Shown here: positions 39,877-52,434 of the stretch, piece by piece
Numbering within the stretch: the first letter of the stretch is position 1
Layout of the letters: every line of letters starts with the position of its first letter
Source: Podarcis vaucheri
Taxonomy: Eukaryota
NCBI GenBank assembly: GCA_965113315.1
Contig: OZ220376.1
Direction: 5' to 3' (one strand)
DNA: 64,000 nt
Translations under genes and position numbers: made by a program
The notes under the pieces: model-generated
What the model saw: the letters and a program-made list of their open reading frames with translations, nothing else
Told to the model about the DNA's origin: nothing
The model's database searches: none

Positions 39877-40632
39877 ATAATAGTAATAATAATTTATTAT
39901 TTATACCCCGCCCATCTGGCTGGGTTTCCCCAGCCACTCTGGGTGGCTTCCAACAGAATATTAAAATACAATAACCTATTAAACATTAAAAGCTTCCCTA
40001 AACAGGGCTGCCTTCAGATGTCTTCTAAAAGTCTGGTAGTTGTTTTTCTCTTTGACATCTGGTGGGAGGGCGTTCCACAGGGAGGGTGCCACTACCGAGA
40101 AGGCCCCCTGCCTGGTTCCCTGTAGCTTGGCTTCTTGCAGCGAGGGAACTGCCAGAAGGCCCTCGGCACTGGACCTCAGTGTCCAGGTGGAACGATGGGG
40201 GTGGAGACGCTCCTTCAGGTATATCGGACCAAGGCTGTTTAGGGCTTTAAAGGTCAGCACCAAGACTTTGAATTGTGCTCAGAAACGTACTGGGAGCCAG
40301 TGTAGGTCATTCAAGACCTGTGTTATATGGTCTCGGCAGCCGCTCCCAGTCACCAGTCTAGCTGCTGCATTCTGGATTAGTTTTAGTTTCCGGGTCACCT
40401 TCAAAGGTAGCCCCACGTAGAGCACACTGCAGTAGTCCAAGCGAGAGATAACTAGAGCATGCACCACTCTGGCGAGACAGTCCACAGGCAGATAGGGTTT
40501 CAGCCTGCATACCAGATGGAGCTGGTAAACAGCTGCCCTGGACACAGAATTAACCTGCACCTGCATGGACAGCTGTGAGTCCATAATGACTCCCAGGCTG
40601 CGCACCTGGTCCTTCAGGGGCGCAGTTACCCC
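39877..40632 (-). mobile_element. L2 LINE, 3' part of the host copy
   Basis: ORFs with SRLDYC, IQNAAARL, LHWLPV; TTA-type tail. Confidence 0.93.
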
Positions 40633-41949
40633 TGGATCCCTTCCAGTCAGGATTCAGGCCTCATCATGGGACTGAAACTGCCTTGGTCGCACTGGTTGAT
40701 GATCTCCGGCAGGTTAGGGACAAAGGTGAGAGCTGTTTCCTAGTTCTGCTGGATCTCTCAGTGGCCTTTGACACCATTGACCGTAACATCCTTCTGAACC
40801 GTCTAGAGGGGCTGGGAGCTGGGGGCACTGTTATACAGTGGTTCTGCTCCTTCCTCCTGGGCCGTGTTCAGAAAGTGGTGGTGGATGAGTGTTCAGACCC
40901 CTGGGCCCTCACTTGTGGGGTGCCTCAGGGTTCTGTCCTCTCCCCCATGCTTTTCAACATCTATATGAAGCCGCTGGGAGAGATCATCAGGGGGTTTGGA
41001 CTGGGTGTTCATCAGTATGCGGATGGTACCCAGCTCTACCTCTCTTTCAAATCAGAACCAGTGAAGGCAGTGAAGGTCCTGTGTGAGTGCCTGGAGGCGG
41101 TTGGAGGTTGGATGGCGGCTAACAGATTGAGGTTGAATCCTGAGAAGACAGAAGTACTGTTTTTGGGGGACAGGAGGCGGGCAGGTGTGGAGGATTCCCT
41201 GGTCCTGAATGGGGTAACTGTGCCCCTGAAGGACCAGGTGCACAGCCTGGGAGTCATTTTGGACTCACAGCTGTCCATGGAGGCACAGGTCAAATCTGTA
41301 TCCAGGGCAGCTGTTTACCAGCTCCATCTGGTACGCAGGCTGAGACCCTATCTGCTTGCAGACTGCCTCGCCAGAGTGGTGCATGCTCTAGTTATCTCCC
41401 GCTTGGATTACTGCGATGCGCTCTACGTGGGGCTACCTTTGAAGGTGACCCGGAAACTACAACTAATCCAGAACGCGGCAGCTAGACTGGTGACTGGGAG
41501 CGGCCGCAGAGACCACATAACGCCGGTCTTGAAAGACCTACATTGGTTCCCAGTACGTTTCCGAGCACAATTCAAAGTGTTGGTGCTGACCTTTAAAGCC
41601 CTAAACGGCCTTGGTCCAGTATATCTGAAGGAGCGTCTCCACCCCCATCGTTCTACCCGGACACTGAGGTCCAGCACCGAGGGCCTTCTGGCAGTTCCCT
41701 CACTGCGAGAAGCCAAGTTGCAGGGAACCAGGCAGAGGGCCTTCTCGGTAGTGACGCCCTCCCTGTGGAACGCCCTCCCACCAGATGTCAAAGAGAACAA
41801 CAACAACCAGGCTTTTAGAAGACATCTGAAGGCAGCCCTGTTTCGGGAAACTTTTAATGTTTGATGTATTATTGTATTTTAATATTCTTTTGGAAGCCGC
41901 CCAGAGTGGCTGGGGAGGCCCAGCCAGGTGGGCGGGGTATAAATAATAA

Positions 41950-44944: not shown

Positions 44945-45397
44945 ATTATTATTAGTATTAAAATGTATACATTGCTCTTCATCATAGGATCAAAGGGCAG
45001 TTTACAGCTTAAAAACACAGAAACACCTAACACATTAACAAACAAAAACAATAATCCTCAACACCACCACAGTTTAAAAGGCATAGATTGTTTAATCAGC
45101 CAAATGCCTGACTGAAGAACAATGGCACCTAAAGATATGTAATGAAGGCGCCTAGCGAGCCTCCCTGGGGAGAGCATTCCACAAACTGGGAGCCACCACA
45201 GAAAAAGCCTGTTCTCAGGTTGCTGCGCTCCAGACATCTTGTGCAGGGGGCACACGAAGAAGGGCATCCTCTGAAGGCAGGGTCCAGGTCAGTTCATATG
45301 GGGTCCTTGGCTGTTTAAGGCTTTATAGGTCAAATCCAGCACTTTGAACTGGGCCTGAAACTAACTGGCAGCCAGTGCAGTAGGACCAGGATTGGTG
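44945..45397 (-). mobile_element. Older L2-type 3' fragment
   Basis: Decayed TPIL..LHWLPVSF..QFK remnant on the minus strand; AT-rich tail. Confidence 0.7.
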
Positions 45398-45494
45398 CCA
45401 TTTGCTAATATCCCATCCTCCTCCTATTGCTGTTGGTCTGCTGACCAACAGCAATAGGAGGAGGAAGGATGGGATATTAGCAAATGGAACCAAT
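45391..45494. repeat. Near-perfect inverted repeat (hairpin)
   Basis: 48/52-nt arms, loop TGCT, one mismatch and one 4-nt bulge. Confidence 0.95.
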
Positions 45495-45642
45495 TATGCT
45501 TTATTCAGGTCAAGGGGACTTAGTCCCACACAAGTGTGTTTAGGATTGCAGCCTCAATACCAGTTTTGGTATTGCTAAAAATGATCACTAGGTGGCGGTA
45601 GAGTCACACTTCTCTGTATAGGAGAAGGTGAGGACCAATCTT

Positions 45643-48600
45643 AGAATCATAGAATCATAGAATCATAGAATCATAGAGTTGGAAGAGACCACAAGGGCCA
45701 TCGAGTCCAACCCCCTGCCAAGCAGGAAACACCATCAGAGCACTCCTGACATATGGTTGTCAAGCCTCTGCTTAAAGACCTCCAAAGTAGGAGACTCCAC
45801 CACACTCCTTGGCAGCAAATTCCACTGTCGAACAGCTCTTACTGTCAGGAAGTTCTTCCTAATGTTTAGGTGGAATCTTCTTTCTTGTAGTTTGGATCCA
45901 TTGCTCCGTGTCCGCTTCTCTGGAGCAGTAGAAAACAACCTTTCTCCCTCCTCTATGTGACATCCTTTTATATATTTGAACATGGCTATCATATCACCCC
46001 TTAACCTCCTCTTCTCCAGGCTAAACATGCCCAGCTCCCTTAGCCGTTCCTCATAAGGCATCGTTTCCAGGCCTTTGACCATTTTGGTTGCCCTCTTCTG
46101 GACACGTTCCAGTTTGTCAGTGTCCTTCTTGAATTGTGGTGCCCAGAACTGGACACAGTACTCCAGGTGTGGTCTGACCAGAGCAGAATACAGTGGCACT
46201 ATTACTTCCCTTGATCTAGATGCTATACTCCTATTGATGCAGCCCAGAATTGCATTGGCTTTTTTAGCTGCCGCGTCACACTGTTGGCTCATGTCAAGTT
46301 TGTGGTCAACCAAGACTCCTAGATCCTTTTCACATGTACTGCTCTCAAGCCAGGTGTCACCCATCTTGTATTTGTGCCTCTCATTTTTTTTGCCCAAGTG
46401 CAATACTTTACATTTCTCCCTGTTAAAATTCATCTTGTTTGTTTTTGCCCAGTTCTCTAATCTGTCAAGGTCGTTTTGAAGTGTGATCCTGTCCTCTGGG
46501 GTGTTAGCCACCCCTCCCAGTTTGGTGTCATCTGCAAATTTGATCAGGATGCCCTTGAGTCCATCATCCAAGTCGTTGATAAAGATGTTGAATAAGACCG
46601 GGCCCAAGACAGAACCCTGTGGCACCCCACTAGTCACTCTTCTCCAGGATGAAGAGGAACCATTGATGAGCACCCTTTGGGTTCGGTCAGTCAGCCAGTT
46701 ACAAATCCACTGAGTGGTAGCATAGTCAAGACCGCATTTTACCAGCTTCTTTACAAGAATATCATGGGGCACCTTGTCAAATGCTTTGCTGAAATCAAGG
46801 TAGGCTACATCCACTGCGTTCCCTTCATCTACCAGGCTTGTAATTCTGTCAAAAAACGAGATCAGGTTAGTCTGACATGACTTATTTTTCAGAAATCCAT
46901 GCTGACTATTGGTGATCATAGCATTCCTTTCTAGGTGCTCACAGACTGTTTGCTTAATGATCTGCTCCAGAATCTTCCCTGCTATTGATGTCAGACTGAC
47001 TGGGCGGTAATTATTTGGGTCCTCTCTTTTCCCCTTTTTGAAAATAGGGACAACATTTGCCCTCCTCCAGTCTGCCGGGACTTCGCCTGTTCTCCAGGAA
47101 TTCTCAAAGATGACTGCCAGTGGTTCTGAGATCACATCTGCCAGTTCTTTTAATACTCTTGGATGCAGTTCATCTGGCCCTGGAGACTTGAATACATCTA
47201 ATCTAGCCAAATATTCTTGTACTATCTCCTTAGTTATTCTGGGCTGTGTTTCCTTTGCTGAATCATTTGCTTCAAATTCTTCAGGTCGGGCATTGTCTTC
47301 TTTATCGGAGAAGACTGAGGCAAAGAAGGCATTGAGGAGTTCAGCCCTTTCTGTGTCCCCTGTTTGCATTTCACCATCTTCTCCTCTGAGTGACCCCACT
47401 GTTTCTTTGTTCTTCCTTTTGCTACGAACATACCCATAAAAGCCTTTTTTGTTGCTTTTAACCTCTCTAGCAAGCCTGAGTTCATTCTGTGCTTTAGCTT
47501 TTCTGACTTTGTGTCTACACGTGCTGGCTATTTGTTTGAATTCCTCTTTGGTGGTTTCCCCCCTTTTCCATTTTTTGTACACATCCTTTTTTAATCTTAA
47601 TTCAGTTAAAAGTTCTTTAGATAGCCACCCTGGTTTCTTTAGGCACCTTCCATGTTTTCGTCTCATTGGTATTGCCTGACGTTGTGCTTTTACTATCTCC
47701 GTCTTAACAAACTCCCAGCCATCATGAACTCCCTTTCCTTTTAGTATTGCTGTCCATGGGATCTCACCCAGCACTTCCCTAAGTTTTATGAAGTCGGCTT
47801 TCTTAAAGTCAAGAAATTGAGTCCTAGTATGCTTGGCTGCTACTTTCCGCTGTATAGTAAACTTCAGAAGAGCATGATCACTCGCGCCTAATGATCCTTC
47901 CACATCTACCCCACTAACCAGGTCATCAACATTGGTTAGGACCAGGTCTAAAATGGCTGTTCCTCTTGTTGCTTCTCCCACTTTCTGGACAATGAAGTTG
48001 TCTGCAAGGCCAGTGAGGAATCTGTTTGACCTTATGCTCTTGGCTGAGTTTGACGTCCAACAAATATCCGGGTAATTGAAGTCCCCCATTACTACTATCT
48101 CCCTTCCTTTTGCATGCTTGGCCATCTGTTCCAGGAAGGCATCATCTATGTCCTCCGTTTGGCTTGGGGATCTATAGTAAACTCCCACAATGAGGTCTCT
48201 GTTATTCTTCTCTCCCTTAATTTTGACCCAAATGCTCTCACTTTGGCTTTGAGGTTCTAAATCTTGGATCTCTTCACAGGTATACACACCCCTGACATAT
48301 AACGCCACTCCTCCTCCTTTCTTGTCTGGTCTGTTTCTCTGAAATAGATTGTATCCCTCCATTATTACATTCCAATCGTGGGACTTATCCCACCAGGTTT
48401 CAGTGATGCCTATTATGTCATATTTAGTTTGCTGTACCAAGAGCTCAAGCTCATCTTGTTTATTTCCCATGCTTTGCGCATTAGTGTACAGACATTGAAG
48501 TCCATTAATCATTCCCCCGTGTCTCTTATTTAAGGATTTTTTCCTCCCTCCACTAGGTCCGCGTGCTGTTTGCTCCATTTGGTCTATGACATTTGGATGA

Positions 48601-48700
48601 TCATCTTCATTAATTGATAGACTCCTACCTTCAGGAGCACTGTCTCCCTCCCCCACATTAGTCAGTTTAAAGCCCTCCTGATGAGGTTTCTGAGATTTTT
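45643..48700 (-). mobile_element. CR1 LINE, 5'-truncated at the end of ORF1
   Basis: (ATTCTATG)n tail, short 3'UTR, ORF1 C-terminus [12 protein letters not shown]. Confidence 0.97.
45735..48656 (-). CDS. CR1 ORF2: APE endonuclease + reverse transcriptase, uninterrupted
   Basis: YTNA, ITETWW, GDFN, SDH endonuclease motifs; [31 protein letters not shown] motifs; GTG start, first ATG at 48578. Confidence 0.96.
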
Positions 48701-49669
48701 TAAGAGACTATGGAGAAGAAATCATCCCCCTCCATTGACTTTGTAAGCAAATGACTGTCAGGATGCATAATGGAATCTGCCAGATTGCCCCCAAACACTC
48801 TGAAACATTCCCCTTTCCTAGGGGCCTGATCCTGGTGAGCCTCCTGGACTGTGACTCCTTTAGCCACCACTGGCCATCTGGGAATCGGACTTAAATGACC
48901 CATGGAGGTCTCCCTTCCCTTGCAAACCTCACTGCCTTTATAATCACCACAGGCAACACATTATGCAAATACTCATTTAATACATGCATTGTCCTCAATT
49001 TGAACAAATTCCCTTGATTTGCACAATGTATTTTGAGCCCCGTTTTGCATAATTATGATTGCAGGTGACCAGAACTGGTAGTGGAGAAGGAAGAAGAGAG
49101 GTACAGCAAAACGTGGAATATTTAATTAGTATTGTCAAGTAAACAGAGGCCACGAAGAAGAGAGATGTAGTTTGGCCAAGCTCAGAGGTCACTGCAAAAT
49201 CTTGCCAACGCTGACTCTGGGTTTTCAAATCTGTCTACACATCCATAAGAACCAAACATCTTTTATTTATACAAAATAGAAGTTGTGGTGCACTTCCCAT
49301 ACTCACCCCTCCTCCCCCCCAAAAAAATCATCCAGAAGATGGCCAACTCTGATTATAGGTCTGAGTCTGCGGTTATTATAGATTGGCCTGCCATGACTGC
49401 TTTACAGGCTGAAATGAGCAACACACCATTTAGAGTTAATTATAGGTAGAATTCATTGGGCTGTCAGCAGTCCTTCCAATTTTATTAATTGGCGAGCCAG
49501 GCTTTCTCTTAAAGGTCTGTCTGTGCCAGCTTTCCACAACCCACGTTTTGAACTACAACTCCCATCATTCCCAGCCAGCACAGGAAATCAGATCAGGAGA
49601 TTAGGTTGCAGGGTCTTGCGGGCGAAAGCCGGTCCACAGGACAGAGGCTAGCTGCTCCTGCTCTATAAC

Positions 49670-50520
49670 CCCTCTGCAGTGCCACAAATCCAACTCAATG
49701 GTGTAACGTTGGAAAATGTTGATCACTTCTCCTACCTAGGCAGTTATCTTTCCACAAGGGCCAACAATGATGCCAAAATCCAGCATCGTCTGAGCTCTGC
49801 AAGTGCAGCTTTCTCGCGACTGAAGTGCAGAGTGTTTGAGGACCGGGACATTGGCAGGGAAACCAAAATGCTTGTTTACAAAGCTATTGTATTACCAACC
49901 TTACTGTATGCTTGTGAAAGATGGACCACTTATAAATGCCATCTCTAACTCCTTGAAAGATTCCATCAATGGTGTCTCTGAAAAAAAATTACACTTGGGA
50001 AGACAGGCGAACTAATATCAGTGTGCTGGAAGAAGCAAAGATCTCCAGTGTTGAAGCAATGATTCTTCAACATCAGCTTCGTTGGACTGGTCATGTTGTG
50101 CAGATGCCTGATGATCGTCTTCTAAAGCAACTACTCTATTCTGAACTTAATAATGGAAAGCGTAATGCTGGTGGTCAACAAAAGAGGTTTAAAGACTGTC
50201 TCAAGGCAAATCTTAAAAAATGTAGTATAAACACTGACAACTGGGAAACACTGGCCTGTGAGCCAGTTGGAGAACAGCCTTTACCAAAGTCATGGGCTTT
50301 GAAGACACTCAAATTCAGGACGCAAGGGAGAAACGTACTAAGAGGAAGGCACGCTTGGCAAATCCACACCGTGATCAACTCCCGCCCGGAAACCAATGTC
50401 CCCACTGTAGAAGGACGTGTGGATCCAGAATTGGCCTCCACAGTCACTTACGGACTCGACTCATTGTTAAAACTGTGTTTATGGAAGACAATCTTACTCA
50501 GCTACAAGTGATCGCCAAAG
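49670..50520 (+). mobile_element. Degenerate RTE-1-like LINE 3' fragment
   Basis: F.YLGS, QLRWTGHV, RFKD.LK and C-terminal CPHC..H..L zinc finger remnant over three frames. Confidence 0.88.
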
Positions 50521-52434
50521 ATACTATATTAGTTTAAAACAGGCTCAAAGCTGAGTACCAGTAATCAACACAACTCCCAATCCAGGAGCTCTGGGTGTTG
50601 TATTTCTGCGATGATCTAAGGATCTTTGGACAGAATTCACAGCTTAGTGGTTTAACCATCAACCCCTCTTCCCAGGGAACTCTGGGAATTATAACTCACT
50701 TAGGGGAATAGGGCATAGGGTTGCCATATTTTGAAGAGCAAAAGAGAGGACACATTTGCCGACTTCTACTTTTAACTATAGATCGCTGTGATGACACTCA
50801 TTTTACATACCCCTGAAAAAGAGGATGTGTTCTGGAAAAAGAGGACATATGGCAATCCTAAATAAAGGCCCCATCACAACTCTCAGCTCCCTAAACAAAC
50901 TACTGCTCCTATAATTTTTGGGGACAAACCATGACTGTTCAAAGTAGCATCATAGCGCTTTAAATGTATGGTGTGGGCTTTGCAATTTTGTGGGTACAGA
51001 AGAATCAGGCACACAAAGGCTTGATCAGGTGCTGAAGATTCCTGTGTGCTCTCATGAGAACAGGCATCAAGTCATGACTATGTTGTCATGTGTTTGTTCT
51101 CTAGGAAGGCCACAAAAATGAACCAGATAGCAGATAAGAGCATTTTAATATATGATGCCTAAGTGTTTTTAGGGTTGATAGCAAGCTCTGTGCTACCCAG
51201 ATACATGCTTTTGCCTGGGATGATCTGCACCATTTTGCTGCCTAGCTAAAATGGGCAGAATATCAAATTGATATGCCAAAGGTTCAGTTCTTCTGTATTA
51301 CCCACCCACTTCGTTCAAACCATGCTTGGGAAGGACAGCTGTGGACCCCGCTATATACCTGATGATGCAATTAGGCATGCACCCCTAGCTCTGCAAGCTT
51401 CTTCTGCTTCCCCCAGAAACAGGGATGTGGCTGAAAGGATCCAACTTACTCTGGGCACAGAGGGCATTCACACAACCACTTGATCAAGCATTAGTCCGAT
51501 GTAGATAGTGTCTCAGACTCACAAGACTATACAAGGCGATTGTCCCAAGCCAGATCTATACCCTTGTGCATTAAGCACAAGGACAAGCGTGGTTGGCTGG
51601 AGAGCATAATAACTTAATTGCAGAAGCAAAAGTTCAATCCCATTCTCATTACAGTTTCCTGTCTTCTCTGCCTTTTGCCTCAAACCTCTTCCTACTTCAC
51701 TTACTTTTTCTGTGTATTACTGCTCCCTGATCCACCACACACTTCCTTCAACCACAGGAAGGAACAGGGGAAGCTGCCTCCTACTGAGACAGACAATTGG
51801 TCTAAGTTCAGTACTGTCTACACTGACTGGCAGTGGCTTTCCAGGTTTTCCCAGCCCTACCTGGAGATGGTGGGGAAGGAACCTAGGGCCACCTGAATGC
51901 AAAGCAGATGCTATATGGACCTTCCCCTAGAACCTTAGGCTAAGACCATAAAGTTATTCTGCAGGTTCGTGGCAGAGATGACCTCTGAAACTATCTTGTC
52001 CTCGGGCTGCTTACCCTTTAGTTTCCCCACCTCCTGAGTTTCCTTCCAAAGCTTCCAGTCCTTAATACTGTCCCTTTCAGTCCATGGGAAGTTTCAGCCC
52101 CAGTCAAACTGCCAATGTTCCCTGCCTTCAGCGAAACTGGACAGCAGCTAATCTGTTTCAGAAGCTTCACTGTCACAAGTACAATGCTACATAGATATCC
52201 CCTTGAGAGGAAGCCAGAGATGGTATCTGGAAGAGGGGAAGGGATGTAGGGAGGAAAGTTACTTTGATGAGCAGCCAACTTAACCCTTGCTTTCCAGGCC
52301 AAGAGCCAAAGGGATTCTTATTGCAAAGATGTCTATAACATATGCCTGATGTCTCTGAAGGCTTACTAACTTTGCAATAATGGTTGCAAAACTTGGCTTC
52401 TCTGCTGGGTATTTAAAATGACAAAGACGAGGGG

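Follow-up and report, generated by a model that had tools for sequence, protein, structure and literature searches.

The CR1 LINE family represented in the DNA analysed here probably produces its endonuclease-reverse transcriptase in the form of an ORF1-ORF2 fusion, through programmed -1 ribosomal frameshifting at a U_UUA_AAC heptamer that adjoins the ORF1 stop codon. What was seen is the layout of the junction, the invariance of the heptamer codons, a constant frame relation between both ORFs and the lack of a conserved AUG, and it is from these that we infer the steps of translation. Most ribosomes would terminate at the ORF1 stop and release ORF1p, while in a minority tRNA-Leu and tRNA-Asn, seated on the heptamer, would slip one base back, and reading would then continue in ORF2. 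The predicted fusion would be of about 1333 aa (357 + 976), made at a low fixed ratio as in Gag versus Gag-Pol. U_UUA_AAC ranks with the heptamers most prone to shifting, and the variant G_UUA is tolerated (PMC5009743; PMC3542737). Throughout, "the window" is the whole stretch of DNA that was analysed, 64 kb long, and published papers are cited for portions of their text.

The ORF1-ORF2 junction and the copy that carries it

The junction lies in a young CR1 copy whose features are collected in Table 1. In a search of its own genome, 39 other copies (from the best 40 of 334 candidates) show a 100% match from about 48700 onward, and because the family matches start there, the window copy is taken to be 5'-truncated at about this position. 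It retains the last 12 codons of ORF1 with their TGA and nothing more. The same ORF1 end was found in all 29 other own-genome copies examined; 14 of them have an open ORF1 of 357 codons, and for 26 an ungapped comparison with the window copy along 1536 nt shows 1-13 mismatches. ORF1 of the full copies is an SGNH esterase (PF13472 domain match), and the named proteins nearest to it, among the matches listed, are those of Podarcis muralis and Zootoca vivipara, which makes a lacertid lizard the probable host. Esterase-type CR1 LINEs carry a short 3' UTR with a hairpin and a tail of 8-nt repeats, and all three are present at the 3' end of the window element. The two domains of ORF2 (APE and RT) and, in the full copies, the SGNH-esterase ORF1 are likewise those of this type, to which the element is assigned on its anatomy and its ORF1 homologs.

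Table 1. Coordinates of the CR1 copy and of its junction features within the window
Feature	Coordinates	Strand	Basis and remarks
Young CR1 LINE copy, 5'-truncated	45642..48700	minus	Family identity onset at about 48700; tail from direct reading
ORF1 remnant, last 12 codons + TGA	48662..48700	minus	Sequence reading; full-length copies have an SGNH-esterase ORF1 of 357 aa
Slippery heptamer U_UUA_AAC in X_XXY_YYZ phase	48665..48671	minus	Sequence; codon invariance across lineages
ORF1 stop adjoining the heptamer	48662..48664	minus	Sequence; TGA here, TAG or TAA in relatives
G-rich tract, candidate stimulator	48642..48654	minus	G5 run at 48654-48650; onset 7 nt past the stop, 10 nt past the heptamer
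Stop-free -1-frame linker, ORF1 stop to first endonuclease Asn	48483..48661	minus	ATGs at 48578 and 48512 inside, non-conserved
ORF2 frame from the heptamer, 978 codons	45735..48671	minus	AP endonuclease and reverse transcriptase domain matches
3' UTR with inverted repeat GGGTTGGA/TCCAACTC and (ATTCTATG)n tail	45642..45734	minus	Direct reading

The first-pass annotation of this DNA had described TTTAAAC at 48671-48665, in phase and followed by TGA at 48664-48662, and these positions proved right. As it also stated, a -1 slip enters an ORF2 frame open for more than 970 codons (978, counted from the codon at 48671), the nearest ATG (48658) is out of that frame and lies in the ORF1 frame, and the first ORF2-frame ATG, at 48578, comes about 26 codons later (codon 32 if TTT is codon 1). 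A second ORF2-frame ATG follows at 48512, and both precede the first endonuclease Asn (codon 64). Its claim that the heptamer joins ORF1 to ORF2 stands for the layout but not for the window copy as a user of the site, with 12 ORF1 codons left. As ORF1 is almost wholly missing, the window copy itself is unable to use the signal, of which it is a truncated relic, and the question is therefore one for the family and not for a single copy.

The junction shows the traits of a canonical -1 site, namely an X_XXY_YYZ heptamer in the 0 frame, a long conserved -1 ORF and conservation at synonymous sites. TTTAAAC by itself is common, with 12 occurrences in the window; it is the phase of the heptamer, its placement at the ORF1 stop and its conservation that are beyond chance.

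Several other observations concern the same region. The stop context of the young family, UGA-CUA (48664-48659, minus strand), is a type II readthrough motif (PMC3542737); readthrough there would append about 26 residues, and the motif is absent from other lineages. Just beyond the CR1 tail lies a near-perfect palindrome (45391-45494) with arms of about 50 bp and a 4-nt loop, for which the computed arms are 29 and 26 nt with 96-97% complementarity, possibly a MITE-like or fold-back element. On the plus strand, a 424-codon open frame at 40590-41864 has a reverse transcriptase domain and belongs to another retroelement fragment, and broken frames at 49652-50537, which gave no Pfam match, are reminiscent of the 3' portion of an RTE-type LINE.

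Conservation of the heptamer and of the reading frame

ORF1 homologs were compared by their C-terminal ends. The matches listed come from lizards, turtles, frogs, crocodilians, birds and rays; 75 of the 120 have a DGxHL-like motif 26 residues from the end, and the remaining 45, with a degenerate motif or a different end, were excluded. The last residue is N in 74/75 and the one before it L in 74/75. The residue preceding L-N varies (A 54, T 6, G 5, Y 5, E 2, S 2, D 1), and every one of these except E is encodable by a codon ending in T. Two proteins ending in E-L-N (P0009 and P0019) are incompatible with U_UUA and imply G_UUA_AAC or A_UUA_AAC. ORF1 proteins of the distant group likewise end in X-L-N, 29-31 or more residues past the motif. 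Two oddities were met among the homologs. Poison-frog proteins (P0014, P0040 and P0045) share 59-64% identity with the lizard esterase region, as close as the turtle ones, for which horizontal transfer or slow evolution is possible; and a CR1 ORF1 protein (P0044) is publicly labelled a Klebsiella pneumoniae SGNH hydrolase, likely by contamination with host DNA.

At the nucleotide level, a scan of metagenomes with peptide patterns lying far upstream of the junction gave 75 loci, 26 of them long enough to include the end of ORF1. Of these, 21/26 contain TTTAAAC, with the stop next in 19/26; locus L069 has GTTAAAC and a stop, and the heptamer is absent from L043, L079, L100 and L103. A codon-degenerate pattern applied to the own genome found GCT TTA AAC in 58 of 63 matches, which represent few families and are hence non-independent, and the reversed control gave 0 matches.

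For a comparison by lineage, 13 intact-looking representatives were chosen by hand: 2 lizard, 7 bird-like (a label inferred from resemblance to bird-named proteins) and 4 distant. Their final codons are TTA in 13/13 and AAC in 13/13, and the preceding base is T in 12/13, though the amino acid of that codon changes 7 times on the tree. Each of 20 control conserved columns had 1-7 synonymous changes in the same representatives, leaving 0/20 invariant, and none of 63 third-base columns is invariant. With a background usage of 0.12 for TTA among Leu codons and 0.37 for AAC among Asn codons, the Poisson chance of zero changes is about 0.01 (Leu) and 0.03 (Asn), figures that are rough, the rows being hand-chosen. 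The suggestion that the ORF1 ending is conserved at the RNA level is borne out by this difference between heptamer codons and controls, and the synonymous variation that would have spoken against it was looked for in TTA and AAC and not seen.

How deep this conservation goes is indicated by L067, whose ORF1 has 35% identity with the lizard ORF1 over the esterase and whose nearest named relative is a protein of the tubeworm Ridgeia piscesae (87%); its lineage is probably annelid. TTTAAAC followed by a stop can also be read in CR1 consensus rows published for alligator, crocodile, bearded dragon, bullfrog, coelacanth, bowfin, sharks and rays (PMC13343379), which are illustrative only, having been found by the motif itself within the first 400 characters per row. 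No relatives were found among the viral contigs searched, and genome contigs gave one uninformative fragment. Judged by its sequence, the signal at the ORF1 end is real and deeply conserved.

The frame relation points in the same direction. Among 32 anchored copies with an endonuclease match, a count that took in L061 after separate resolution and excluded four mis-anchored copies, 26 have the -1 relation, six the +1 relation (L043, L080, L116, L118, L130 and L131) and none frame 0; the six are read as decayed copies. The distance from the stop to the endonuclease Asn is 2 mod 3 in all 13 representatives despite eight linker lengths (110, 125, 143, 152, 182, 227, 278 and 284 nt), and the -1 frame of the linker is stop-free in 11/13, the other frames holding 0-11 stops. 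The constant -1 relation that had been proposed thus holds among intact copies, and a variable frame among active families, which would have contradicted it, was not found. In 6/13 representatives the -1 frame extends no further back than 1-3 codons before the heptamer, and therefore any shift would be confined to the heptamer. In-frame ORF1-ORF2 proteins (P0163, P0171, P0179 and P0043) were left unused, as they are single-member cases consistent with indels or gene-model joins. Two own-genome copies (L120 and L146) have an insertion of about 340 nt just past the ORF1 stop, and behind this insertion the junction sequence recurs.

One may ask whether ORF2 is instead translated from the AUG at 48578 or 48512, through reinitiation, leaky scanning or internal entry, the heptamer being kept for some other reason. 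Two in-frame ATGs do precede the endonuclease in the window copy and its family, which also counts against a frameshift, and SART1 uses a stop-start AUG (PMC3708506; PMC3894237). Among 22 copies of an older lizard family, 3 of them without alignment at the 48512 equivalent, that position is ATG in 6/6 aligned copies with a TAA stop; in the 13 aligned copies of the TAG-stop subfamily, however, it is ACG in 4, ACA in 6, ATG in 2 and another codon in 1, a pattern that may be CpG decay from ACG, and the 48578 equivalent is mostly ACT. In L062 and L067 no Met precedes the first endonuclease motif, their first Met lying 14 codons past the endonuclease Asn with an open frame without ATG upstream, and a start at an AUG would leave the frame constancy upstream of it unexplained. 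The SART1 type of stop-start was not found at this junction, where TAATG (48660-48656) has its AUG in the ORF1 frame and is not conserved. No AUG is conserved across lineages, and we give a downstream AUG start very little credence.

A restart without a required AUG deserves more weight, though we still consider it unlikely. Here, reinitiation coupled to termination, as proposed for L1, would restart nearby in the -1 frame, with the heptamer and the G-run as its signal and a free ORF2p as its product. It accounts for a signal next to the stop, for the constant frame and for the open linker. It has a precedent in L1, whose ORF2 is produced by AUG-independent initiation (PMC5009743), which weakens the argument from the lack of an AUG, and CR1 elements devoid of ORF1 exist (PMC13343379). 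Codon 5 of the ORF2 frame, 2 nt past the stop, is ATG in 4/16 lineages, a point against the frameshift, and GTG or TTG in 3 more, so that 7/16 suit reinitiation; in the remaining 9/16 it is TCG, CTT, AAT, TGG, GAC, GCA or GCG. Moreover, reinitiation predicts neither the exact X_XXY_YYZ phase nor that the sole deviant representative should carry G_UUA_AAC, a tolerated shift site. Frameshifting remains the reading that we favour.

The G-rich tract and candidate stimulators

Downstream of the stop, G occupies +8 and +9 in 16/16 lineages, +10 and +11 in 15/16 and +12 in 14/16. The onset of the run is at +8 or before it, three bases earlier in L069, and it begins 10 nt after the heptamer in 15/16 lineages, which share no pairing partner for it; of all positions in the window ORF2, 0.6% begin a GGGG. 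Since, in the ORF2 frame, +8 falls on the third base of a codon whose amino acid varies and +11 on that of a Gly codon, the constraint on the G-run looks to be at the RNA level. Several published CR1 consensus rows have another spacing of the G-run or none (PMC13343379).

Whether this tract acts through a fold was considered in several ways. The GGAG/CTCC and CTCCT/AGGAG stems of the first-pass annotation do have their complementary stretches in the sequence, but as a stimulator they did not hold (folding z -0.49 to +0.96); these hairpins were rejected, being no better than shuffles, and the older lizard family keeps the G tract and replaces its C/T-rich partner. No conserved stem-loop or pseudoknot was found by local folding downstream in 16 lineages and three window sizes (folding z -2.8 to +1.4); three lineages fall below -2 in some window, with structures differing among them. 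Local folds and a partial long-range check gave no conserved stimulatory structure 5-9 nt downstream. A G-quadruplex is not supported and not conserved, because the distant lineages L061, L062 and L067 hold one GGG run in 50 nt. Over longer distances, no partner of the G-run was found at a common downstream position in 14 copies. The best long-range partners in the window element sit in the 3' UTR, and a compensating change there was not seen in L158, the only older copy whose 3' end was located. A recurrent upstream partner near -432 to -456 was discounted, as it coincides with C-rich codons for C-L-P.

More tentatively than the slip itself, we suggest that pausing would come from the adjacent stop codon and the G-run, the latter probably being a single-stranded or protein-bound signal and not a local hairpin. 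G-runs can act as protein-binding or splicing signals, and this leads to a further explanation, in which the motif is kept for a role outside translation (the C-terminus together with an RNA packaging, splicing or promoter signal) or ORF2 is made from a spliced, edited or sub-genomic RNA. The esterase might indeed need its C-terminal L-N, but the codons are not fixed by protein constraint. Processed RNA is weakly disfavoured by continuous coverage of the junction in three raw RNA runs, which were chosen by species label and sampled at 6-12% of each run (depth about 30-55). In these reads, which come from both strands and mix many copies, no indel at >=3%, no joint and no start cluster was found at the heptamer. 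The coverage weakly disfavours splicing or slippage and is not evidence of the element's own RNA expression. Altogether, we find an explanation of this kind highly improbable.

Some points also count against the frameshift. The G-run, 10 nt off the heptamer, lies beyond the usual spacing of 5-9 nt (PMC3542737); many CR1-group elements have no ORF1 (PMC13343379), and hence ORF2p needs no fusion; and ORF1 products have been argued to have to stay separate (PMC3708506). The lack of a conserved stem-loop, the six +1 copies, the two E-L-N proteins and the choice of representatives among intact-looking copies, when L043, L079, L100 and L103 lack the heptamer, weigh on the same side.

A more general picture may be drawn, which is possible although we would lean against it. 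Esterase-CR1 LINEs of bilaterian animals, from the annelid-type to those of amniotes, might share one ancient Gag/Gag-Pol-like -1 shift at U_UUA_AAC, driven without RNA structure by the adjacent stop and by a G-run that is unpaired, keeps a fixed spacing and might be bound by a host protein or by ORF1p, and this shift would tether the reverse transcriptase to a membrane-binding esterase.

Comparison with known systems

The translation of the second gene of LINEs is described as an open question (PMC3894237; PMC3708506), and in most vertebrates the CR1 group dominates among the retrotransposons (PMC13343379). A 30-nt signal fits in a reporter, which makes the ORF2 question directly testable for the CR1 clade. 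If the fusion is true, CR1 ORF2p is an esterase fusion, annotations that place the ORF2 start at an internal AUG are wrong, and a structure-free G-run is an unusual frameshift stimulator. No proposal of frameshifting for CR1 was found in the literature within reach of our search, beyond which lie the early chicken and turtle CR1 papers. The CR1 LINEs with an esterase ORF1 described previously (PMC13343379; PMC3905857) resemble ours in their SGNH-esterase ORF1 and APE + RT ORF2; the word "frameshift" is absent from the main texts of these papers, as far as available, and ORF2 translation is not addressed there. The term "CR1" was likewise not found in the portions of PMC5009743 consulted. The junction would represent a known recoding mechanism in a setting where we have not found it described, and its candidate stimulator is unusual.

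The site itself resembles the viral U_UUA_AAC heptamers (IBV; G_UUA in equine arteritis virus), where a phased heptamer leads to a polymerase in the -1 frame (PMC5009743; PMC3542737). Unlike the viral sites, the CR1 junction has no conserved structure 5-9 nt downstream, has an immediate stop and a G-run 10 nt away, and its host is a non-LTR retrotransposon.

In arteriviruses a C-rich motif lies about 10 nt downstream of the shift site. The motif of the CR1 junction is G-rich instead, and a protein binding it is putative. Arterivirus frameshifting is stimulated in trans by proteins, nsp1beta and PCBP (PMC5009743), and the likeness is one of analogy only.

Among LINEs, L1 and SART1 share with CR1 a bicistronic RNA and a low ORF2 output (PMC5009743; PMC3708506; PMC3894237), yet they rely on initiation or reinitiation and make a free ORF2p, while CR1 has no conserved stop-start AUG. 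TRE5-A and TRE3-A of Dictyostelium are APE-type LINEs whose ORF2 is said, in a figure legend of a review, to need a -1 frameshift (PMC5911963); they differ from CR1 in their ORF1 and belong to a different clade.
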